A stretch of DNA of 64,000 nucleotides from a virus (Duplodnaviria; Heunggongvirae; Uroviricota; Caudoviricetes). Location: the IMG/VR virus record IMGVR_UViG_2718218131_000002; one strand, given 5' to 3'. Positions 170 through 63,348 of the stretch are shown here, one piece after another (position 1 is the stretch's first letter; the number at the start of each line of letters is the position of its first letter). The translations under genes were made by a program, and so were the position numbers. Below the pieces are notes generated by a model. The model did no database searches. It had not been told where the DNA came from and saw nothing but the letters and a program-made list of their open reading frames with translations.

Positions 170-227
170 AAAAAGGGCGGCAGAGCAGTCACGGAGTAAA
201 ACTGATACCGCCAAACGTCACCAGAAA
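170..227 (-). ncRNA. dicF: DicF small RNA (cell-division inhibitor sRNA of Qin-type prophages)
   Basis: Minus-strand sequence reads UUUCUGGUGACGUUUGGCGGUAUCAGUUUUACUCCGUGACUGCUCUGCCGCCCUUUUU, matching the recalled DicF sequence and ending in a terminator hairpin; lies downstream of ydfC as in the dicB operon. Confidence 0.6.
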
Positions 228-7267: not shown

Positions 7268-7472
7268 ATTGGCGAGGTAACGGTAGTTAAGTAGAATTGC
7301 TGCGGGTGCTTGAGGCTATCTGCCTCGGGCATCAACACCAAAGGCAGATAGAGAAAAGCCCCAGTTAACATTACGCGTCCGGCAAGACGCTTAACATTAA
7401 TCTGAGGCCATATCTATGCTCTACACACGTAGGTTAGCCTCTTACGTGCCGAAAGGCAAGGAGAAGCAGGCT

Positions 7473-7628
7473 ATGAAGCAGCAAAAGGCGATGTTAATCG
7501 CCCTGATCGTCATCTGTTTAACCGTCATAGTGACGGCACTGGTAACGAGGAAAGACCTCTGCGAGGTACGAATCCGAACCGGCCAGACGGAGGTCGCTGT
7601 CTTCACAGCTTACGAACCTGAGGAGTAA
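7473..7628 (+). CDS. hokD: Hok/Gef-family type I toxin (51 aa), HokD/RelF-like, with an in-frame Mok-like upstream extension from 7416
   Basis: MKQQKAMLIALIVICLTVIVTALVTRKDLCEVRIRTGQTEVAVFTAYEPEE; structured leader upstream; terminator downstream. Confidence 0.8.
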   Translation: MKQQKAMLIALIVICLTVIVTALVTRKDLCEVRIRTGQTEVAVFTAYEPEE

Positions 7629-18620: not shown

Positions 18621-19088
18621 ATGAACCGTGTTCTGTGTGTGGTGATTATTGTCCTGCTGGTAGCCTGTGGTGTGCTTAGTCTGGGGCTGAATCATTACCG
18701 CGATAACGCCATTACCTACAAAGCGCAACGCGATAAAAAAGCCAGTGAGCTGAAGCTGGCGAACGTGACAATTACTGATATGCAGGTACGCCAGCGTGAT
18801 GTCGCTGCACTTGATGCCAGATACTCGAGGGAATTAGCCGATGCGAGAGCTGAAAATGAAACTCTGCGTGCTGATGTTGCCGCTGGTCGTAAGCGCCTGC
18901 GCATCAACGCCAACTGTCCAGGCTCCTTGCGTAAAGCCCCCATCACCTCCGGCGTGGATAATGCAACCGGTCCCCGACTGGCAGAAGCCGCTGAACGGGA
19001 TTATTTCATCCTCAGAGAACGGCTGATGGCAATGCAGAAGCAACTGGAAGGAGCACAGGAATATATCCGTACCCAGTGTATACCGTGA
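18621..19088 (+). CDS. Rz i-spanin
   Basis: 155 aa; N-terminal transmembrane segment then coiled-coil region; embedded Rz1 frame. Confidence 0.8.
18856..19026 (+). CDS. Rz1 o-spanin lipoprotein embedded in Rz (+1 frame)
   Basis: [15 protein letters not shown] lipobox followed by a proline-rich segment. Confidence 0.7.
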
Positions 19089-19553
19089 TGTTTTGTTATG
19101 AAGGTGTTACTGGTAACGTTAAGGTAATTTAACAAAGAGTCAGTTCCGGACTTTATAGTGTGCTCAGTTCATGGACAAAAACGATTTCTGTGATAAATAT
19201 TTTGAATATTATTTACAGGTAAATGGAGTGGGGCGCATGGATAGAAATATTACAATAGAGTATGAAGTATATGCCCGTATTGTATGGGCAGAGAAGGCAA
19301 AAACACGGTAATTCCGTGTGTTGCCATGATACCTGATTGGCAGAATAGTTGTTTGGTTTTGAGTATATAGTCAGCGTTTTTTGTTCAGTAATTGCCCCCT
19401 CAAAAAATAATAAAATAAGGTGATTATTTTTGTTTATTATTTAGTTTTTTTTGTGTGTTATTTTATTGTTTTTGCGTGGTTTGTTTTTTATTGTTATTTC
19501 ATTAAGGGAAGGTAAATTCAGGATGGCAGTCTGTAGATAATCGGAGGTCACTT

Positions 19554-19868
19554 ATGCTACATGATCACGTGGCAGAATGTCTGGAGAAAAAAGGACTGTA
19601 CCGGAGAGCAGCTGAACGATGGGCAAAAGTGATGGTACAGCTAAGTGATGACCAGAAAAGAAAAGTGGCGGCACAGAAACGAGCAGAGTGTTTGCGTAAG
19701 GCGCGCCGGACTCCGGTTTCACCGGTGAACCTGACCGAAATAAAACAAGCGGTCAACAGACTACATTCTGAGTTGGGAATGGGATTTGAAGAGCGGCGGG
19801 TATTCCGACGATATAAAGGGACAGGAGAACAGAATACGTCCGGAAACGCGCGGTCAAAAAAATGCTAA
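19554..19868 (+). CDS. PerC-family (Pch-like) transcriptional activator
   Basis: N-terminus LEKKGLYRRAAERWAKVM resembles the PerC/Pch signature; follows an AT-rich region after the lysis genes. Confidence 0.55.
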   Translation: MLHDHVAECLEKKGLYRRAAERWAKVMVQLSDDQKRKVAAQKRAECLRKARRTPVSPVNLTEIKQAVNRLHSELGMGFEERRVFRRYKGTGEQNTSGNARSKKC

Positions 19869-19949
19869 AAAATATCTGAGAGCGTTATTGCCTGTTACCA
19901 TAAGAAAAAGCGACTTTAGTGGTCGCTTTTTGTGTCATATATAAGTCGT

Positions 19950-20174
19950 TTAAGTAAACCTGTCTGAACAGGTGCTCTGGTCGTGTTTGTCTTTGTTGGG
20001 TACAAATTGAGCATGTTTTTCATTAATTAATCTTCTTCTGCAGGCTTCAATAACCCACGCTGAAAAATTACCTGAACCTTTCTGATCAAGAGCGATGTTA
20101 ATTTGTTCAATCATTTGGTTAGGAAAGCGGATGTTGCGGGTTGTTTTTCTGCGGGTTCTGTTCTTCGTTGACAT
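19950..20174 (-). CDS. Ribbon-helix-helix (Arc/CopG-like) small DNA-binding protein
   Basis: 74 aa; basic N-terminus then RFPNQMIEQINIAL...GSGNFSAWVIEACRRRL. Confidence 0.4.
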   Translation of the reverse strand: MSTKNRTRRKTTRNIRFPNQMIEQINIALDQKGSGNFSAWVIEACRRRLINEKHAQFVPNKDKHDQSTCSDRFT

Positions 20175-20344
20175 GAGGTTGCCCCGTATTCAGTGTCGCT
20201 GATTTGTATTGTCTGAAGTTGTTTTTACGTTAAGTTGATGCAGATCAATTAATACGATACCTGCGTCATAATTAATTATTTGACGTGGTTTGAACCGCCC
20301 CGGGAATCCTGGAGACTAAACTCCCTGAGAAAGAGGTAAACAGG

Positions 20345-20671
20345 ATGACTAAAAATACTCGTTTTTCCCCCGAAGTCCGTCAGAGGGCGATTCGTATGGT
20401 TCTGGAAAGTCAGGGCGAATATGACTCACAGTGGGCGGCAATTTGTTCCATTGCCCCAAAGATTGGCTGTACACCGGAGACTCTGCGTGTCTGGGTACGC
20501 CAGCATGAGCGGGATACCGGAGGCGGTGATGGCGGGCTCACCACCGCTGAACGTCAGCGTCTGAAAGAGCTGGAACGTGAAAATCGTGAACTGCGCCGCA
20601 GTAACGATATCCTTCGCCAGGCTTCCGCTTATTTTGCAAAGGCGGAGTTCGACCGCCTCTGGAAAAAGTGA
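20345..20671 (+). CDS. IS3-family transposase OrfA (108 aa)
   Basis: [55 protein letters not shown]. Confidence 0.85.
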
Positions 20672-21558
20672 TGCCACTGCTGGATAAGCTGCGTAAGCTG
20701 TACGGGGTCGGACCGGTATGCAGTGAACTACATATTGCCCCGTCAACGTATTACCACTGTCAGCAACAGCGACATCATCCTGATAAACGCAGTGCCCGTG
20801 CGCAGCGCGATGACTGGCTGAAGAAAGAGATACTGCGCGTATACGATGGGAATCATCAGGTATACGGTGTGCGTAAAGTCTGGCGTCAGTTGTTACGGGA
20901 AGGAATCAGGGTAGCCAGATGTACAGTGGCGCGCCTCATGGCGGTTATGGGACTTGCCGGTGTTCTCCGGGGTAAAAAGGTCCGCACTACCGTCAGCCGG
21001 AAAGCCGTTGCCGCAGGCGACCGCGTAAACCGTCAGTTTGTGGCAGAACGTCCTGACCAGTTGTGGGTGGCTGATTTTACTTACGTCAGCACATGGCAGG
21101 GGGGCGTCTATGTGGCGTTCATCATTGATGTGTTTGCCGGATACATCGTGGGGTGGCGGGTCTCATCGTCTATGGAAACGACATTCGTGCTGGATGCTCT
21201 GGAGCAGGCGTTATGGGCCCGTCGACCGTCCGGCACAGTCCATCACAGTGATAAAGGTTCTCAGTATGTATCGCTGGCCTACACACAGCGGCTTAAGGAA
21301 GCCGGATTACTGGCATCAACAGGAAGTACTGGTGACTCGTATGACAACGCGATGGCGGAGAGCATCAATGGCCTTTACAAAGCGGAGGTAATACACCGTA
21401 AGAGCTGGAAAAACCGGACAGAAGTGGAGCTGGCCACACTCACGTGGGTGGACTGGTATAACAATCGACGATTGCTGGAAAGGCTGGGCCATATCCCACC
21501 GGCAGAAGCAGAAAAAGCTTATTATGCTTCCATCGGAAACGATGATCTGGCAGCCTGA
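20668..21558 (+). CDS. IS3-family transposase OrfB (296 aa; DDE integrase core)
   Basis: Overlaps orfA in the -1 frame; DDE catalytic region. Confidence 0.85.
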
Positions 21559-21686
21559 GTTCACAGATAAAACACTCTCCAGGAAACCCGGGGCGGTTCA
21601 GTTTGATGGCGTAGATGCACGTTGTGACATGTAGATGATAATTATTATCATTTTGCGGGTCCTTTCCGGCGATCCGACAGGTTACG

Positions 21687-21698
21687 GGGCGGCGACCT
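21687..21698. other. cosN cohesive-end site of the prophage (lambda-type)
   Basis: GGGCGGCGACCT followed by CGCGGGTTTTCGCTATTTATGAAAATTTTCCGG, matching the lambda left end, about 180 bp upstream of Nu1. Confidence 0.75.
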
Positions 21699-21875
21699 CG
21701 CGGGTTTTCGCTATTTATGAAAATTTTCCGGTTTAAGGCATTTCCGTTCTTCTTCGTCGTAACTTAATGTTTTTATTTAAAATACCCCCTGAAAAGAAAG
21801 GAAACGACAGGTGCTGAAAACGAGCTTTTGGGCCTCTGTCGTTTCCTTTCTCTGTTTTTGGCCGTGGAATGAACA

Positions 21876-22395
21876 ATGGAAGTCAACAAAAAGCAGCTGG
21901 CTGACATTTTCGGTGCGAGTATCCGTACCATTCAGAACTGGCAGGAACAGGGAATGCCCGTTCTGCGAGGCGGTGGCAAGGGTAATGAGGTGCTTTATGA
22001 CTCTGCCGCCGTTATAAGATGGTATGCCGAAAGGGATGCTGAAATTGAGAACGAAAAGCTGCGCCGGGAAGTTGAAGAACTGCGGCAGGCCAGCGAGACA
22101 GATCTCCAGCCAGGGACTATTGAGTACGAACGCCATCGACTTACGCGTGCGCAGGCCGACGCACAGGAGCTGAAAAATGCCAGAGACTCCGCTGAAGTGG
22201 TGGAAACCGCATTCTGTACTTTCGTGCTGTCGCGGATCGCAGGTGAAATTGCCAGTATTCTCGACGGGATCCCCCTGTCGGTGCAGCGGCGTTTTCCGGA
22301 ACTGGAAAACCGACATGTTGATTTCCTGAAACGGGATATCATCAAAGCCATGAACAAAGCAGCCGCGCTGGATGAACTGATACCGGGGTTGCTGA

Positions 22396-55053: not shown

Positions 55054-55427
55054 TTTTTTTCGTGTTTTTTCAGTATGCGCATACTGGATAAGTGCACAGA
55101 TACAACGTGAAACAATACGCAACAACGTGAAACAACCACGAACAAGAGGCCAAAAAGTATACAGATTTATAAGTTGCTGATTTTTAATGATCAACTGGTT
55201 TTTTATACATTAGCGAATAACGCTTTAAATAGTGAGAAAAAAGGCATAAAACGAGATTTTATGCCTTTGCATAACACTGAATTAAAATATATTTTATTAA
55301 AATAACCCCGTTTCTGTAAAATACCCGCCACCAACATTTGCCAACTCTGAATCACCCTGACACAATCAGACACATCCCAACGCAATAGAACACGAAATAA
55401 CTCTTTAAGAAACGAAAGGGGGCAATA

Positions 55428-55616
55428 GTGTTAAGCACTGATCGGTTTATACGTGAAAAAGAATGCGAAAAGCTAACAGGCCTTAGCCGCTCATGCCGCT
55501 ACCGCCTGGAAAAGGCCGGACAATTCCCATCACGGCGTAAGCTGGGCGGTCGTTCCGTTGGCTGGTCTTTATCCGAAGTTCTGGCATGGAAGGACAGCTG
55601 CGAGGCAGTTCACTAA
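55428..55616 (+). CDS. alpA: AlpA-family phage regulatory protein (excisionase-like HTH)
   Basis: 62 aa LTGLSRSCRYRLEKAGQFPSRRKLGGRSVGWSLSEVLAW. Confidence 0.55.
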   Translation: MLSTDRFIREKECEKLTGLSRSCRYRLEKAGQFPSRRKLGGRSVGWSLSEVLAWKDSCEAVH

Positions 55617-55943
55617 TCAGGCTGGCGGCACACAGCCGCCACGCATCCACTAATACAGAGATCTAACCATGAATACTGGATATACGCCCGAACAGGGGCG
55701 GGGCTTCGTTCGGCCTGGTGAAACTGAAAAACAACAAAATCGCGGTTTTTCAGACATAAAAAAAGCGGCCCCGATAAGGAGCCGCCTTTCTGAACAATTA
55801 ACCTACTGCGCAAAAAATGAATCTGAGCAGGGGAATTATATCAGCCAGGTGACGAAGCGCCACAATTGCCGGATAACGGGCAAAGAAAAGGCCACCTGTC
55901 ACGGTGGCCAATGTGATCAGTGTGGTGGTTTGCTGGTGGATTG

Positions 55944-56123
55944 TCAGCCTTTTGGCACAATACCGCGCTGTTGTAATTCTTTACGGATTATTCGCTTTAT
56001 CCAGGCAGCAAGAGAATCATCGCCGTCCTGTTGTTGTGCTTTTTCCATCTTTTCCCGTAAGTCAGGATCTAAACGAAACTGGAACGGAGGATTACCACGC
56101 CTTTCGTTTTTGTGTGTTGACAC
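55944..56123 (-). CDS. Ribbon-helix-helix small DNA-binding protein (unlisted 59-aa ORF, GTG start)
   Basis: NPPFQFRLDPDLREKMEKAQQQDGDDSLAAWIKRIIRKEL; GAGGTG ribosome-binding site upstream. Confidence 0.4.
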   Translation of the reverse strand: MSTHKNERRGNPPFQFRLDPDLREKMEKAQQQDGDDSLAAWIKRIIRKELQQRGIVPKG

Positions 56124-56630
56124 GTTAATTACACCTCATGTAATGTATTTATGTGTAGTGACACATTACACACAATCAGCACAAAAAGCAAAGCCCCGCA
56201 AGTGTCGTTACCACTGGCAGGGCTTATAACCACAAACCGTTATGAGAGGTAGTTTTATGGCTGTAAGACAGCATACCCCACGCCTAGCGCACACACAAAC
56301 GGCCTTTGTGTGGCGTAATCGATTTCATGATTTCACTTTTCACAATCAGCCAGGCGGTCGGTTTTTGCCGGATTTAAGCCGCCGTGGGTATTTATCGACA
56401 AAATCTTCAAGGGCAAATTTTTCTGGTGGCACTAAGCGCGGCGCTGGTGGTGGTATTTTTGTTCTGGTTAGTTCTTCCTCAAGTCTGGCGCAGGCTTCTG
56501 ACTGCCTTTGCCGGATGATTTCATCATCTTGCGTTTGCGTGTCTTGTATTGGTGATAGTGTGTTGTTGGTCATGATACTGCCCTGTAAAGCAATGCGCCG
56601 TAGTACCTCACACCACGGCGCTAGTGATGG

Positions 56631-56810
56631 TTACTCCTGCTCTTTGGCCTTCCTGCGCTGGCGGCGTTTGATCTCGCCTTGCATTGACGCAATGATGAAT
56701 TGTGATGTGCTTTCGCCTGATTCTTTCACTAATTCCATGGCGTTTACTATTTCGTGTGGTACACGAGCCTTTAGAGCTTGTGATTTTGCGTTTGTTGTAC
56801 CCGTTGCCAT
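56631..56810 (-). CDS. Ribbon-helix-helix-like small protein (59 aa)
   Basis: MATGTTNAKSQALKARVPHEIVNAMELVKESGESTSQFIIASMQGEIKRRQRRK; AGAGGA ribosome-binding site. Confidence 0.4.
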   Translation of the reverse strand: MATGTTNAKSQALKARVPHEIVNAMELVKESGESTSQFIIASMQGEIKRRQRRKAKEQE

Positions 56811-57005
56811 TTCTATTCCTCTGTTGGATTGGTGGGGGACAGTATACACAGAAAAAGCACAAATAAAACCCTTGACGTGGACCACACCTAAAGAATATAG
56901 TGGGCCACACCTTAAGGTTGTCAAGGTGCATAAATGCAAAGCCCCGCAAGTGTCGTTACCACTCGCAGGGCTTATAACCACAAACCGTTAACAGGAGTAA
57001 CGATT

Positions 57006-57203
57006 ATGGCTGGAACACAGCATACCCCACGCCTTGCGCACACACAAACCGCCTTTGTGTGGCGTTTTCTGGCACTGAGTGCCGGAGAATCTCAAATTAT
57101 CCACGTGACCGCCTGGACGGAACGCGAAGCGCGTAACCGTTGCCCGTCCGGTTGTGTCGCTGTATTCGCCGCCCGTATTCGTCAGGAGGTGTGCCATGCC
57201 TGA
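57006..57203 (+). CDS. Hypothetical small protein (65 aa) downstream of the second copy of a duplicated leader
   Basis: AGGAG ribosome-binding site; N-terminus MAGTQHTPRLAHTQTAFVWR is shared with a paralogous start at 56257. Confidence 0.3.
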   Translation: MAGTQHTPRLAHTQTAFVWRFLALSAGESQIIHVTAWTEREARNRCPSGCVAVFAARIRQEVCHA

Positions 57204-57516
57204 TATGTCAAATTACCAGTACCTGATTAATCCGCATTTTAACTGTGAGCATGATATTGCTAAAAAGGTTTATTCTGCTGCGGATGAGGCTACTGACAAT
57301 ATATCAATGGCTGTTGCGTCAATTGGTAGCCTGATGTGGTATGCGTCAGAAAATGAGGAATATGACGAAAAGGCTATGCGCATTGACATGGGGAATATTG
57401 GCTTGTTACTGGCAATGCTTGGGCAGTTTGATATTTCGTTACGGTGCACCATTGAAAATGCCACAGATGCATTAAATGCCATAAAGAAAGCGAATACTGA
57501 TTCAAATCGGGGATAA
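57196..57516 (+). CDS. Hypothetical protein (106 aa)
   Basis: Strong AGGAGG ribosome-binding site before ATG (MPDMSNYQYLINPHF...). Confidence 0.4.
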   Translation: MPDMSNYQYLINPHFNCEHDIAKKVYSAADEATDNISMAVASIGSLMWYASENEEYDEKAMRIDMGNIGLLLAMLGQFDISLRCTIENATDALNAIKKANTDSNRG

Positions 57517-57522
57517 ATAATC

Positions 57523-57822
57523 ATGAGAACATATTTATCTGGCTTGACTGCCAGCGGTTATGCACACCCAAAAATTATCCCCGGCGCTATTTATCTGGAT
57601 AAGAACGGTAACAGAGTAACGGTAAAAGAACTGATGTTTGACCGTGTTTATTTTATTCGTGATGGATATTCATTTCTTAGTTCGCTGAACGTGGAGATCT
57701 TTATTTGCAGATTCCGGCGGGAAATCCCGACTTCCAGAAATAACCATGTGTCACGTGTGGATGTGGATAAAAAACTACAGGAACTGAAAAACATGATTGC
57801 CGCGTGGAGAGAGCAGAAATGA
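57523..57822 (+). CDS. Hypothetical protein (99 aa)
   Basis: ORF tightly packed between the neighbouring genes; overlaps the primase start. Confidence 0.35.
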   Translation: MRTYLSGLTASGYAHPKIIPGAIYLDKNGNRVTVKELMFDRVYFIRDGYSFLSSLNVEIFICRFRREIPTSRNNHVSRVDVDKKLQELKNMIAAWREQK

Positions 57823-59636
57823 AAAAAGCGCCAAATTTAAAACACCAGCCGCGTGACAAAATGACGGAAGTCATCATTTTTGCGGGTAGTGATGCGTGGG
57901 CACATGCGAAGCAGTGGCAGGAACAGGACGGGCGACTGGCTGGCGATAACGTGCCACCTGTCTGTCTTGGAGAGCAACAACTTGCCGAACTGGACAACCT
58001 GCAAATCGTACCGGACGGACGCTATCGCGTGCGTCTCTACCAGGCGGGGTTATTGCGTCCGGGGCTTGTTAATACCATCGGGCAGAAACTGGCAGCGGCA
58101 GGTGTCAGGGATGCTGATTATTACCCTGAAGGAATGCACAGCCAGAAACGGGAGAACTGGCGCGAATATCTGGAACGTGAACGGGCAGAGCAGGCGGAAA
58201 AGAAAAAGGTAGTTGAACTGCCTGTAAAGAAAAAAGAGCGGGTAAAAGACGATAACGCTTCATCACTGGCGCTTAACCAGATGGGAGCAAGTCAACGCGG
58301 CGAAGTTCTCCTGGCACATTATGGCGGTGAACTGGCGATTCATGCTGACTCTGACACTGTTCACCATTACAACGGCGTTGTATGGGAGCCAGTACAGGAT
58401 AAAGAATTACAGCGAGCTATGGCACAGATTTTCATTGATGCGGAGATCAGCTATTCGCAGAACGCCATTAAATCGGCGGTCGATACCATGAAGTTAAGTT
58501 TGCCTGTAATGGGGAATACAGCCCGTAACCTGATTGGATTCAGTAACGGGGTATTTGATACCAGAACAGGTAATTTTCGGGAGCATAACAAAAACGACTG
58601 GTTGTTAATTGCCAGTGAATTACCTTTCAGCCCACCAGCAGAGGGGGAAACGCTGGCAACACATGCGCCGAATTTCTGGAAGTGGTTACGCCGTTCGGTG
58701 GCTGAGAATGACCGCAAGGCGGATCGCGTACTGGCTGCATTATTCATGGTGCTGGCGAACCGGTACGACTGGCAGTTATTCATTGAGGTAACAGGTCCAG
58801 GGGGAAGTGGTAAAAGCGTGATGGCGGAGATTTGCACCATGCTGGCGGGTAAGGCTAATACAGTATCAGCGAGCATGAAGGCGCTGGAAGATGCAAGGGA
58901 ACGCGCGTTAGTGGTTGGCTTTTCGCTGATTATCATGCCGGATATGACCCGCTACGCTGGTGATGGGGCGGGAATTAAGGCTATTACAGGCGGTGACAAG
59001 GTGGCAATCGACCCAAAACATAAAGCCCCATATTCAACTCGTATCCCGGCAGTAGTGCTGGCGGTTAACAATAACGCTATGTCATTCAGTGACCGCAGTG
59101 GGGGGATCTCACGTCGTCGGGTGATATTCAATTTTTCGGAAGTTGTACCGGAGAACGAACGTGATCCAATGCTGGCGGAAAAAATAGAAGGTGAGCTGGC
59201 GGTAGTGATTCGCCATCTGCTTACACGGTTTGCTGACCAGGACGAAGCCAGACGCCTGTTATATGAGCAGCAGAAATCTGAAGAAGCACTGGCGATAAAG
59301 CGAGAGGGGGATTCGCTGGTGGACTTCTGCGGCTATCTCATGGCGTCGGTAATGTGTGATGGCCTGTTAGTGGGTAATGCTGAAATTGTGCCATTCAGCC
59401 CACGCAGGTATCTCTATCATGCCTATCTGGCTTATATGAGGGCACATGGGTTTGGTAAACCTGTAACACTGACGCGCTTCGGTAAAGATATGCCGGGGGC
59501 AATGGCGGAATATGGCAGGGAGTATATGAAACGGAAAACGAAGCACGGTTTGCGTTCAAACGTGACACTGACGGAGGAATCAGAAGACTGGATGCCATCA
59601 TGTGTATCGGTCACTAATGACGATAGCAAAAATTAA
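57819..59636 (+). CDS. P4-alpha-type primase/helicase (satellite replication protein)
   Basis: Walker A GPGGSGKS in the C-terminal half; primase-like N-terminal region; followed by TGTTCACC iterons. Confidence 0.8.
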   Translation: MKKAPNLKHQPRDKMTEVIIFAGSDAWAHAKQWQEQDGRLAGDNVPPVCLGEQQLAELDNLQIVPDGRYRVRLYQAGLLRPGLVNTIGQKLAAAGVRDADYYPEGMHSQKRENWREYLERERAEQAEKKKVVELPVKKKERVKDDNASSLALNQMGASQRGEVLLAHYGGELAIHADSDTVHHYNGVVWEPVQDKELQRAMAQIFIDAEISYSQNAIKSAVDTMKLSLPVMGNTARNLIGFSNGVFDTRTGNFREHNKNDWLLIASELPFSPPAEGETLATHAPNFWKWLRRSVAENDRKADRVLAALFMVLANRYDWQLFIEVTGPGGSGKSVMAEICTMLAGKANTVSASMKALEDARERALVVGFSLIIMPDMTRYAGDGAGIKAITGGDKVAIDPKHKAPYSTRIPAVVLAVNNNAMSFSDRSGGISRRRVIFNFSEVVPENERDPMLAEKIEGELAVVIRHLLTRFADQDEARRLLYEQQKSEEALAIKREGDSLVDFCGYLMASVMCDGLLVGNAEIVPFSPRRYLYHAYLAYMRAHGFGKPVTLTRFGKDMPGAMAEYGREYMKRKTKHGLRSNVTLTEESEDWMPSCVSVTNDDSKN

Positions 59637-59647
59637 ACTTATGGAAT

Positions 59648-59880
59648 AACTGTTCACCACTGTTCACCCTGTCATAAATATCTTTTGTATCAGTATGTTA
59701 TAGGGTGAACAGTTATTTATGAACTGTTCACCAAACTATTCACTGTTCACCTTTTTGATTGTTTATTGAGCTTCAAGGGTGAACAGTGGTGAACAGTTGG
59801 TGAATAGTTTTTGTGAAACTGTTCACCCCTTAACATTATGAATTAAAAGATAAAATATCAAAAGGTGAACAGGTGAAGGG
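59648..59880. repeat. Iteron array (replication origin) with at least 8 copies of TGTTCACC / GGTGAACA
   Basis: ACTGTTCACC at 59650 and 59660, inverted copies at 59704 and 59778-59809, further copies to 59879; immediately after the primase gene. Confidence 0.75.
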
Positions 59881-59923
59881 TTAAAACGCAAAAATTTTAA
59901 TTTACTGCTGTGAGATAAAGCCT

Positions 59924-60169
59924 ATGACAGCGAAGCACATAAAAAAATCACAATCGCACGCCCTTGATTTGACGGAACACTGGTTAAGGGTGTCGATAAA
60001 AATCATCGACCGCAACGCCGGGGAAGGATATGCGAAAGCACATCCCGAACTGATTAGCGCATTCATGACAACGGCAGCTGCAAACTTTGCCACGCTGACA
60101 GAACGGGAGATTGCCGAAGCGGAACAGGTGACAACCATCAATGTTAAAACCGGAGAGCAGACAGCATGA
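59924..60169 (+). CDS. Hypothetical protein (81 aa)
   Basis: ORF overlapping the next gene start by 4 nt. Confidence 0.35.
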   Translation: MTAKHIKKSQSHALDLTEHWLRVSIKIIDRNAGEGYAKAHPELISAFMTTAAANFATLTEREIAEAEQVTTINVKTGEQTA

Positions 60170-60588
60170 CAGCACAGATAGCGGCTTACGGGCGGCTGGT
60201 GGCTGACCCGCAGTTAAAGACCACCAGCAAAGGGACACAAATGGCGATGGCGAGTATGGCGGTTCCCCTGCCGTGCAGCCAGGCAGATGACGGAACGGCG
60301 ACGATGTGGTTATCCGTCCTGGCGTTTGGCAGACAGGCCGACGCACTGGCAAAACACCACAAAGGCGAATTGGTGAGCGTGGCGGGTAACATGCAGGTAA
60401 GCCAGTGGACAGGCCAGAACGGCGAAACGCGGCAGGGCTGGCAGGTTATCGCAGACAGTGTAATCAGTGCGCGAACGGCGCGACCGGGCGGCAAAAAAGG
60501 CCAGCAGGGGCAGGCCACTGACGCACTGAACAGGGCAAAACAACAGTCGGGGAATGATGATCCGTACGGCGATAATATACCGTTTTAA
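60166..60588 (+). CDS. Single-stranded-DNA-binding (OB-fold, SSB-like) protein
   Basis: MTAQIAAYGRLVADPQLKTTSKGTQMA...WLSVLAFGRQADALAKHHKGELVSVAGNMQVSQW has an SSB-like pattern; Gly/Gln-rich acidic tail ending DDPYGDNIPF. Confidence 0.5.
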   Translation: MTAQIAAYGRLVADPQLKTTSKGTQMAMASMAVPLPCSQADDGTATMWLSVLAFGRQADALAKHHKGELVSVAGNMQVSQWTGQNGETRQGWQVIADSVISARTARPGGKKGQQGQATDALNRAKQQSGNDDPYGDNIPF

Positions 60589-60800
60589 ATTCTGCAAACA
60601 AAAAGATGCCGGAAAAAAAATAGATTTTCCGGCATGCTACATAAATCCCGACCAAAGGAAGTAAATACATTAACACGAATTATCAGCACTGAAGTTGTCA
60701 CGGCATATTTTATACAACATTGCACTTGGTTGCATGTATTCGCATAGCAGACATCGGTAATAGAATATATTCACAATTATTTGTAATGAATGTAAAGAGG

Positions 60801-61847
60801 ATGAGTATGGTTGACTTATATTCGCCTACACAGCTTGTGCAGGTGGCTAATGCTGAAGATGTGCAAAAAAAATTAAATGCGTTGTTTACCAGTTTGTTTT
60901 TCACTCGCTCGGTAATGTTTGAATCGAGAGACATTATTCTTGATACGATCGACGATCCAAATATCCCGATCGCGGCGTTTTGCTCTCCTATGGTGGGCAG
61001 TAAAGTTTCACGAGATGAGGGATACGAATCAAAAACAATTCGCCCTGGCTATATGAAACCGAAAAGCAGCATTGATCCAAATAAGTTAGCTGTGCGCCCT
61101 GCTGGTGTATCACCTGAGCAATACAATGCTTTTGGAGCGCGTAATATTAAAGTTAAACAGGCGATTGTAAATCAGGCTAAAGCTATTCGTGCACGTATTG
61201 AATGGCTTGCCGTTCAGGCAATCACAACGGGGAAAAATATCATTGAGGGCGATGGCATTGAACGTTATGAACTGGACTGGAATATAAAACCACAAAATAT
61301 TATCACGCAGTCCGGCGGTGCTGAGTGGTCAGGTAAGGATAAAGAAACTTTTGATCCAAATGATGATATTGAGAGCTACGCAGAATTTAGTGAGGGCGTC
61401 ACTAATATCATCATTATGGGCGGTAATGTATGGAAGAAATACCGTTCATTCAGAGCGATAAAAGAGGCTCTGGATACCCGTCGTGGTTCTAATTCCGAAC
61501 TGGAAACGGCCCTTAAAGACCTTGGTGATTCGGTGAGTTTTAAAGGGTATATGGGCGATGTTGCGATTGTTGTATACAGCGGGCGTTATACCGACGAGGA
61601 CGGAACTGAAAAACATTTCCTTGATCCTGATTTGATGGTGCTTGGCAATACGGCTCTTCAGGGGATTGTCGCCTATGGCGGTATTCAGGATCCGGAGCTA
61701 ATCCGAATGGGGCTGACTAAAGCCGAACTTGCACCGAAAAACTATATTGTGCCTGGTGATCCGGCTATTGAATATGTGCAGACACATTCAGCACCACAGC
61801 CAATACCGGCCCGCATCAATCGTTTTGTTACCGTTCGCATTGGCTAA
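60801..61847 (+). CDS. Major capsid protein homologous to lambda E, carried by the satellite
   Basis: 348 aa starting MSMVDLYSP; conserved blocks TQSGGAEWSGKDKETFDPNDDIESYA and TRRGSNSELETALKDLGDSVSFKGYMGDVAIVVYSGRY parallel lambda E. Confidence 0.8.
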   Translation: MSMVDLYSPTQLVQVANAEDVQKKLNALFTSLFFTRSVMFESRDIILDTIDDPNIPIAAFCSPMVGSKVSRDEGYESKTIRPGYMKPKSSIDPNKLAVRPAGVSPEQYNAFGARNIKVKQAIVNQAKAIRARIEWLAVQAITTGKNIIEGDGIERYELDWNIKPQNIITQSGGAEWSGKDKETFDPNDDIESYAEFSEGVTNIIIMGGNVWKKYRSFRAIKEALDTRRGSNSELETALKDLGDSVSFKGYMGDVAIVVYSGRYTDEDGTEKHFLDPDLMVLGNTALQGIVAYGGIQDPELIRMGLTKAELAPKNYIVPGDPAIEYVQTHSAPQPIPARINRFVTVRIG

Positions 61848-61856
61848 GGGGGAGCA

Positions 61857-62198
61857 ATGGCTACTCATTACACTGAACTCATGGCTGGCACTGAAGCACT
61901 GGTGACTACGCTGGGGATATTTTCAGCTAATAAAGGGGTAATTCCTGCATTTACGCCACTGATGCAGGAAGATGCAACAGGTGCACTGGTGGTATGGGAT
62001 GGTTCGAGCGTAGGTAAAGCGGTTTATGTTTCCGCTGTACAAATCGACACCGCGAAAAAAACACAGGCTCAGGTCTATAAGACAGGTGTCTTAAATGTTG
62101 ATGCTCTGAACTGGCCTGAGTCTGTAAAAGAACTGTCAGTAAAGATTGCAGCGTTTGTTGGCTCAGGTATTTCTGTTCAGCCGCTGGCTCGTGTGTAA
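61857..62198 (+). CDS. Head decoration protein homologous to lambda D
   Basis: 113 aa; FTPLMQEDATGALVVWDGSSVGKAVYVSAVQ...AAFVGSGISV parallels lambda D (TPLMLDT...[17 protein letters not shown]...[10 protein letters not shown]). Confidence 0.7.
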   Translation: MATHYTELMAGTEALVTTLGIFSANKGVIPAFTPLMQEDATGALVVWDGSSVGKAVYVSAVQIDTAKKTQAQVYKTGVLNVDALNWPESVKELSVKIAAFVGSGISVQPLARV

Positions 62199-62209
62199 AG
62201 GGGGATACA

Positions 62210-62593
62210 ATGCAGAATCATTACAATGACCTTAAGCCAATTGCCGAAATGATGTATCCGGATCCAGCAGTAGAGGAATTAAAGGCTATTGCTGACAAAA
62301 TGCGTTTAAGTGAACGCCTTGTTGATATGAATCAGGTGATGGAACTTACTACCCTTAGCCGTCGCACATTGCTAAACCTTGAGGCTCGCGGAGAGTTCCC
62401 CGAACGCGTACAGGTTACGGAAGGGCGTAAGGCCTGGTATTTAAGTGAAGTGATCGACTGGATAAACAATATTCCTCGATCTTCTGAATATTGCCGCGTA
62501 CCTGTCCCAAAAAAGCCAGATGCGGCGCTATGCCTCAAGATTGAGCGTGTACGTCGCAATGCACGGGATGGTCGCTATAAGTTGATTGGTTGA
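62210..62593 (+). CDS. Hypothetical protein with AlpA/MerR-like HTH in its C-terminal half
   Basis: LTTLSRRTLLNLEARGEFPERVQVTEGRKAWYLSEVIDWI. Confidence 0.4.
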   Translation: MQNHYNDLKPIAEMMYPDPAVEELKAIADKMRLSERLVDMNQVMELTTLSRRTLLNLEARGEFPERVQVTEGRKAWYLSEVIDWINNIPRSSEYCRVPVPKKPDAALCLKIERVRRNARDGRYKLIG

Positions 62594-62649
62594 TGAAATT
62601 AGGGCCCGTTCTGGCTGGCGGGTCCTTTCCGGCGATCCGGTAGGCTACG

Positions 62650-62661
62650 GGGCGGCGACCT
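62650..62661. other. cosN-like site of the satellite
   Basis: GCGGGTCCTTTCCGGCGATCCGG...ACGGGGCGGCGACCT...GTTTTCGCTATTTATGA closely matches the prophage cos at 21650-21720, then diverges. Confidence 0.65.
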
Positions 62662-62794
62662 TGCGCGTTTTCGCTATTTATGAGCCTTTTTCGGGTGCTG
62701 GTGGTGGTTTTGTTGTTCGCTCTATCTCTATGAATAAAAAGGAAAAGATAAAACCAATACACCAACCTGAAACATTACTTAAGTGGGGATATTG

Positions 62795-63337
62795 ATGAAA
62801 TCGTACCTGATGAACAAAAAAAACATGGCGCAAAGCTGCCGTGTAAGTGCGACAGCGTTCGACAAGTGGGGAGTGACTCCCGTTGAACGTAAAGGCCGCG
62901 AGGCGTTTTATGATGTTGCCAGCGTAATAGACAATCGGGTTAGCAATGCAATTAACCAGATTACAGACGACAAAGGCGAGATTGATAATGATGAACTTTT
63001 ACGAGTCAGGATCAGATTACTGACAGCACAGGCGGAGGCGCAGGAACTTAAAAACGAGCGCGATCGCGGTGACGTGATTGATACAGAGTTTTGCATGTAC
63101 GCGCTTTCAAAACTGGCGAGTCAGATTTCATCAATCATGGACAGCCTCCCGCTTACTATGCAAAGGAGCTTCCCACAGATGGCCCCCGCCATGCTGGATG
63201 GCCTGAAAAAAGAAGTTGTCAGAGCCTGTAACGCATGCACAAAACTTGATGAAAACATCCCGCGAATACTGTCCGATTATCTGATGGAAACTACCGGAAA
63301 TGTGCCTGATAAGTTTCAGCCGGATAAAGACAAGTAA
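62795..63337 (+). CDS. Nu1-like terminase small subunit encoded by the satellite
   Basis: C-terminal two-thirds parallel lambda Nu1 (LTAQAEAQELKNERDRGDVIDTEFCMYALSKLASQISSIMDSLPLTMQRSFP); N-terminal DNA-binding part divergent. Confidence 0.7.
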   Translation: MKSYLMNKKNMAQSCRVSATAFDKWGVTPVERKGREAFYDVASVIDNRVSNAINQITDDKGEIDNDELLRVRIRLLTAQAEAQELKNERDRGDVIDTEFCMYALSKLASQISSIMDSLPLTMQRSFPQMAPAMLDGLKKEVVRACNACTKLDENIPRILSDYLMETTGNVPDKFQPDKDK

Positions 63338-63348
63338 CGTAGCGCACA

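Follow-up and report, generated by a model that had tools for sequence, protein, structure and literature searches.

A pchA allele of the PchABC group in the Rz-cos interval of a lambdoid prophage, and the possible relationship of PerC-family regulators to the ANR family

PerC, Pch and the regulators closest to them

PchA, PchB and PchC have been shown experimentally to activate ler/LEE1 in EHEC (PMC4456613; PMC4764244; PMC6265319), and ler/LEE expression and adherence reach their full level only with pchABC, whereas pchD and pchE are dispensable (PMC6265319; PMC4456613). [quoted passage not shown] The mechanism of activation by Pch has been described as poorly understood (PMC4764244). Host inputs acting on pchA include LrhA, Lrp/butyrate and LeuO (PMC4456613).

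Three other systems invite comparison. PerC of typical EPEC, encoded by perABC on pEAF/pMAR2 (strain E2348/69), belongs to the same Pfam family and is, like Pch, a LEE1 activator (PMC4456613; PMC5550750). However, PerC is plasmid-borne, has 89 amino acids and is co-transcribed with the AraC-type gene perA, whereas Pch is prophage-borne and monocistronic, with a 15-residue C-terminal tail predicted to be disordered. Ler, an H-NS paralogue encoded by LEE1, resembles Pch in being horizontally acquired and in relieving the H-NS silencing of LEE and effector genes, and the two act together (PMC4764244). Ler is a DNA-binding protein of the H-NS family, whereas no relation to H-NS was detected for Pch, nor any recognisable DNA-binding fold. 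Finally, the ANR proteins (Aar of EAEC, Cnr of ETEC and Rnr of C. rodentium) are also encoded on mobile virulence elements and have a functional link to H-NS (PMC4983702; PMC5570504), but they are anti-activators repressing AraC-type regulators, whereas PchA activates.

The pchA allele, its control region and its probable terminator

We analysed a 64,000-nucleotide stretch of DNA (hereafter referred to as the window) from the caudoviricete record IMGVR_UViG_2718218131_000002. A reading of the sequence alone (hereafter referred to as the sequence-only reading) had pointed to a 104-amino-acid ORF with a PerC/Pch-like N-terminus. The ORF was found exactly where it had been placed, at positions 19554 to 19868 on the plus strand, with an ATG start and 104 codons plus a stop in the ORF list, and with a GGAGG ribosome-binding site at 19544-19548, 6 nt 5' of the ATG. 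The likeness to PerC and Pch also held, but not its confinement to the N-terminus: the Pfam PerC model (PF06069) covers residues 1-89, aligned with model positions 1-89 of 90 and thus with the model over its full length (E=3.8e-44; 149.3 bits against a gathering cut-off of 22.6). The alignment with PerC that the same reading had proposed as a check gave 49% identity to PerC of EPEC E2348/69 (pMAR2), or 47% by tblastn (E=1e-17), over residues 2-88, which is decisively at odds with an absence of similarity.

All 104 residues of the window protein are the same as in PchA of E. coli O157:H7 Sakai (ECs_1091, prophage Sp4), and its identity to Sakai PchB and PchC is 99% and 98%, respectively. The protein thus displays two features of the PchABC group, being 104 amino acids long and nearly identical to PchA/B/C. 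It also contains all the residues that are invariant in the PerC family (R17, A19, A20, W23 and C46 in Pch numbering), as defined on an alignment of 40 sequences with 27-45% identity; A19 and W23 are invariant in 71 sequences. The same exact protein is present on at least 1000 contigs of a public collection, under the names “PchABC family” or “PerC family transcriptional regulator”. A word-indexed protein search returned 16 matches, all close relatives at least 70% identical, and an exhaustive HMMER search yielded 82 PerC-family representatives. In a phage collection, the pch module was present in two unannotated fragments only. The gene in the window is an allele of pchA and encodes a small PerC-family regulator of the PchABC group; it is therefore already known, as a textbook regulator of EHEC and aEPEC at its usual site.

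Other ORFs overlap the gene. Two on the minus strand (19552-19722 and 19565-19756) were considered and rejected as coding sequences. A third, in the +1 frame (19786-19944), was also rejected, as its translation is known only as the tail of frameshifted pch variants from other strains. Such variants in public data (P0021, P0029 and P0027) end in the translation of this ORF (…YLRELLPVTIRKSDFSGRFLCHI), so pch pseudogenes or variants with an altered C-terminus are in circulation.

The AT-rich region with poly-T tracts that had been noticed ahead of the ORF proved to be a marked feature of the locus. The 224 bp upstream of pchA (19330 to 19553) have a GC content of 0.299, versus 0.502 for the window as a whole, with a composition profile of 0.285-0.30 and a T fraction of 0.46. 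Five T-runs of 5 to 8 nt lie within this segment, at 19377-82, 19427-31, 19445-52 (T8), 19469-73 and 19484-89. Among stretches of 224 bp, only 1.3% have a GC content this low, and only 0.05% a T content this high. A module of about 880 bp, which begins where Rz ends and runs past the probable terminator described below, aligns with the Sakai pchA, pchB and pchC loci, with a handful of mismatches relative to pchA and coding DNA identical to that of Sakai pchA. Between alignment columns ~300 and ~480, there are two differences between the window and Sakai pchA, versus dozens for pchB, the divergence being clear at columns ~320-440. The T-rich stretch follows pchA rather than pchB, so the window contains a pchA allele whose control region is also of the pchA type. 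A scan of 19000-20300 for the sigma-70 promoter consensus found three sites, versus 3.1 expected, and was thus not above chance; no promoter is therefore claimed. A literature search on the transcription start of pchA returned nothing useful.

Downstream of pchA, a hairpin with the sequence AAAAAGCGAC-TTTAGTG-GTCGCTTTTT (19905 to 19931, no strand assigned) is flanked by an A-run and a T-run and lies between pchA and a convergent gene of the YlcI/YnfO type. The RNA fold of 19866-19945 has an energy of -17.3 kcal/mol (z=-2.56 versus shuffled sequences), and the hairpin is invariant in the window and in the Sakai pchA, pchB and pchC loci. It was not detected by a simple terminator scan, probably because the A- and T-runs pair into the stem, and a search of Rfam at gathering thresholds found no RNA family within the pch module. 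This hairpin is probably a bidirectional intrinsic terminator.

The prophage setting and the host

The convergent gene, a small ORF on the minus strand (19950 to 20174), belongs to the YlcI/YnfO family (Pfam DUF3950, E=7.6e-20; NCBIfam YlcI_YnfO_N, E=1.3e-8), and a gene of this family is annotated beside the PerC-family gene in most matching genomes. The genes around pchA confirm that it is carried in a prophage, as had been claimed: lysozyme (17598-18131), Rz (18621-19088), pchA, Nu1 (starting at 21876; Pfam Phage_Nu1, E=2.4e-101) and the large terminase subunit (22396) follow one another in this order, and head and tail genes extend up to about 46.8 kb. Together with the identity to Sakai PchA, these lambdoid genes support the reading of the ORF as a PerC/Pch homologue borne by a prophage. 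The order Rz - pch - [ylcI/ynfO] - cos/Nu1 is the same for pchA, pchB and pchC in Sakai Sp4, Sp11 and Sp14.

The sequence GGGCGGCGACCT at 21688 to 21699 (plus strand), read directly from the DNA, is a cosN site; going by the left-end sequence of lambda, we take it to be the lambda cohesive end. This site places pchA at the far right end of the phage genome as packaged, a usual place for phage cargo genes. In this lambdoid prophage, pchA is a cargo gene (a “moron”) lodged after the lysis cassette (Rz) and before cos. A complete IS3-family element of the IS629/IS1203 type (1310 bp; 20291 to 21600, plus strand) separates the pch module from cos. It has terminal inverted repeats matching at 23 of 25 positions, a 3-bp target duplication (GTT), orfA and orfB ORFs at 20345-20671 and 20668-21558, and an ALIL frameshift pseudoknot at 20626-20742. 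The insertion lies 88 bp upstream of cosN, and strain PK8241 carries the same insertion.

Two genes for type III secretion system effectors, both on the minus strand, lie at the right end of the prophage that carries pchA, abutting potB. These genes, espO (46886-47161) and espK (47222-48583), fall in a stretch 100% identical to strain PK8241, in which they are annotated as “secretion protein EspO” and “type III secretion system effector EspK”; Pfam contained no family matching either protein. The presence of pchA and espO/espK on one prophage means that regulator and effector cargo travel together. There is no stx gene in the window. In Stx phages, the toxin genes occupy a slot by the tRNA cluster. 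Here, the phage tRNAs (CAT, TCG and TCT anticodons; 13949-14198) are followed by the sRNA STnc100 (14274-14464; 138 bits) and a SASA/DUF1737/DUF6645 esterase gene (14687-16540), and this slot (13949-16540) contains no toxin gene.

Several further elements were observed in the window. In the early region of the prophage, Rfam identified the DicF sRNA (175-226, minus strand) and a sok antitoxin RNA of the hok/sok type (7304-7478, plus strand). In the tail-fibre region, an ORF for an IS30-family transposase (HTH_38 plus rve; 45501-46502) lies within about 1.07 kb of extra DNA that is missing from the otherwise identical PK8241 prophage. A second, small mobile element, between roxA and phoQ (53803-63340), carries genes for an integrase, a D5-type primase, a major capsid protein E, a head decoration protein and a Nu1-like small terminase. 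This gene set is that of a capsid-forming phage-inducible chromosomal island (PICI), a satellite. PICIs often carry a PerC-like ORF. The element in the window has none, nor does it have tail or lysis genes, and tblastn identified a single PerC-like ORF in the whole window, that of pchA.

The window shares with Sakai pchA (Sp4) the encoded protein, the pchA-type AT-rich upstream region and terminator, and the slot between Rz and cos, but not the phage backbone. The window backbone is that of a different prophage (the best 24-kb match to O157 prophages has about 94% identity over about 70% of its length), integrated next to potB and carrying espK and espO. The corresponding part of Sakai Sp4 has been rearranged and inverted, and its IS629 fragments lie on the opposite side, which is not the case in the window.

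The 661-bp pch region was found in 672 of 5426 complete E. coli genomes; the median copy number was three, so the copy in the window may be redundant. Sakai ler with the LEE1 promoter was found in 696 of the same 5426 genomes. When this ler and LEE1 promoter sequence was appended to the query, exactly one extra match was obtained in each of the 12 genomes nearest to the window, as judged from the espK-potB junction. On this sequence evidence, all 12 closest sequenced relatives carry ler/LEE1. A LEE-bearing host is therefore likely, given these relatives and the presence of espK and espO on the same prophage. These nearest genomes come from isolates of chicken and human origin rather than from O157.

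Proposed mode of action and possible relationship to the ANR family

In our interpretation, pchA is very probably a prophage-borne anti-silencer of LEE1 under the control of its own AT-rich region. The gene would be transcribed from this regulatory region and its transcript ended by its own terminator. PchA made in a LEE-positive host would activate the LEE1 promoter by relaxing the hold of the H-NS/StpA/Hha silencing complex on AT-rich virulence DNA, with no classical contact between activator and polymerase, and LEE1 activation would then raise Ler together with the type III secretion system and phage-borne effectors. We infer that this copy may be expressed and active in this host. Nothing in the sequence evidence contradicts a role in LEE1 activation. 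The suggestion of the sequence-only reading that the prophage may modulate host virulence regulation is supported to this extent: the identical PchA is a published ler/LEE1 activator, and the host is likely to bear a LEE.

How PchA might loosen the silencing complex is a question on which profile comparisons have some bearing. The published ANR signature comprises A10, E14, A22, W26, A29, W43 and R47, plus C51, on three helices (Santiago et al.; PMC4983702). Pch gave a collinear match to the NCBIfam model ANR_neg_reg (NF033650), with E=0.046 and 13.6 bits, and PerC matched the same model with E=0.0017. NF033650 was matched by 38 of 40 long PerC-family members (best E 5e-7) and by all 10 short members (best E 1e-7), and no family other than ANR was matched by more than two PerC-family members. 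All these matches, including that of the best PerC-family member (31.6 bits), nevertheless fall below the curated cut-off of 32 bits, versus 66-67 bits for bona fide Aar and Cnr (Aar, 65.7).

Over about 50 N-terminal residues, the PerC family can be aligned with the signature A..E...A...W..[AV]....W...R...C in a single register, in which Pch residue r corresponds to Aar residue r+7. In the family alignment, these columns contain A in 67 of 71 sequences, E in 68 of 70, A in 71 of 71, W in 71 of 71, V in 62 of 70, W in 21 of 71 (the commonest residue at this position), R in 54 of 71 and C in 70 of 71, so that six of the eight signature positions are near-invariant in the PerC family overall. The score of this register was 5.96, versus no more than 2.25 at 24 other shifts. 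Pch itself has A7, E11, A19, W23 and C46 in register; at the other three positions, K42 replaces R, and V26 and V38 replace A and W, respectively. Comparisons with decoys were consistent with this alignment: an HMM of the PerC N-terminus placed all six ANRs in the top 2% of 3000 shuffles, and an HMM built from six ANR sequences scored 36 of 71 PerC members above the 1% decoy score. Profile-profile comparison was less favourable. In hhalign, the PerC family aligned with the six-sequence ANR alignment in the right register, but with a probability of just 12-14% (P of about 0.002); with Aar alone, there was no meaningful match (probability 2.6%, out of register), and only one of the six ANRs marginally matched Pfam PerC (E=0.058).

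The AlphaFold (AF2) model of Pch (mean pLDDT 81) comprises three helices predicted with a pLDDT of about 95 (residues 5-13, 16-29 and 33-50), a fourth helix (61-73) and a disordered tail; ANRs are also predicted to be three-helix proteins (PMC4983702). A sequence search of the PDB found no homologue of Pch or Aar, and Foldseek returned nothing significant for the Pch model against the PDB. No helix-turn-helix, winged helix or other recognisable DNA-binding fold was found in the model, leaving the published “competitive DNA binding” step without structural support here. Pch differs from the ANRs in being about 40 residues longer, with the fourth helix and a basic tail. The ANR family is also characterised by small size (<10 kDa) and an AraC/XylS-type neighbour, whereas Pch has 104 amino acids and the window contains no AraC-type gene beside pch. 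On account of score, size and gene neighbourhood, Pch is not filed in the ANR family, but may work similarly. We consider the evolutionary link between PerC/Pch and the ANRs to be probably real.

The mechanism that this link would imply is more tentative. PerC and Pch would form a longer branch of the ANR (Aar/Cnr/Rnr) superfamily, in which a three-helix, TPR-like N-terminal module with a C-terminal extension docks on H-NS-family (and possibly also AraC-type) proteins, with no DNA recognition of its own, and switches on LEE1 mainly through this binding rather than by competition for DNA. The NF033650 matches across the family, the single-register signature with its decoy tests, and the three-helix core are consistent with such a module, and the location of perC in an operon with the AraC-type gene perA is much like the association of ANR genes with AraC genes. 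Aar binds H-NS rather than DNA and renders H-NS-DNA complexes sensitive to DNase (PMC5570504), paralleling the effects of PchA (PMC4764244). However, the sub-threshold scores, the low hhalign probabilities and the single match to Pfam PerC weigh against this mechanism, and a shared TPR-like helical signature could be convergent. Furthermore, PchA is reported to associate with LEE1 DNA in ChIP to the same extent when hns and stpA are mutated, and the binding of H-NS at gadE does not change; these two observations argue against a simple titration of H-NS (PMC4764244), and contact between Pch and H-NS is putative. We therefore regard this protein-docking mechanism as possible, but doubtful. ANR matches have been noticed for a PICI-borne PerC-like repressor of LEE1 in a 2025 paper, which hints at such a mechanism for that one protein (PMC11773190); in the literature searched, it is not stated for PerC or Pch, and the ANR papers within that literature make no mention of PerC.

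The position of pchA raises a different possibility, that it is chiefly a passenger of the late region, transcribed by read-through from the late promoter after induction, so that Pch would be produced in a burst during the SOS response and lysis rather than exerting steady control over LEE. The gene follows the lysis genes directly and in the same orientation, where the late-operon side of the genome ends, and pch is among the regulators most strongly changed in O157:H7 by SOS-inducing trimethoprim-sulfamethoxazole (PMC6265319). Conversely, 465 bp of non-coding, AT-rich spacer precede pchA and differ between paralogues, LrhA, Lrp/butyrate and LeuO are reported to act on pchA in uninduced cells, and pch deletions alter LEE without induction (PMC4456613; PMC4764244). 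A predominantly late role is thus improbable, although read-through and transcription from its own promoter are not mutually exclusive.

Membership of the PerC family alone is insufficient to predict LEE activation, as PchD, PchE and the PICI PerC-like proteins do not activate LEE and one of them represses it (PMC6265319; PMC11773190). The window protein might on these grounds be a non-activator. It might be inactive, as are the PICI homologues and also PchD and PchE, which are dispensable for ler expression (PMC6265319), or it might repress LEE, as does EcCIMP1_025. The sign of the effect is not predicted by family, and LEE1 is either unaffected or silenced by PICI-borne PerC-like proteins (PMC11773190). 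However, the residue-for-residue identity of the window protein to the characterised activator PchA effectively refutes this notion.

Anti-silencing of LEE1 by a prophage-borne PchA is the reading we retain. The combination of pchA with type III effector genes on an stx-negative lambdoid prophage, in what is likely to be a LEE-positive lineage, is routine for EHEC and atypical EPEC. In practice, the locus can serve as a marker of a host of the attaching-and-effacing pathotype, with a prophage feeding into LEE control. The link between PerC and the ANRs is the sole forward-looking part of this analysis, and provides a concrete, testable hypothesis on mechanism, with specific residues to mutate. 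If it is correct, activators (PerC and PchABC), inert proteins (PchD/E) and repressors (the PICI PerC-like protein and Aar) would constitute one mechanistic class, in which the sign of the effect would be set by the partner bound, a matter for the family rather than for the window locus in particular.
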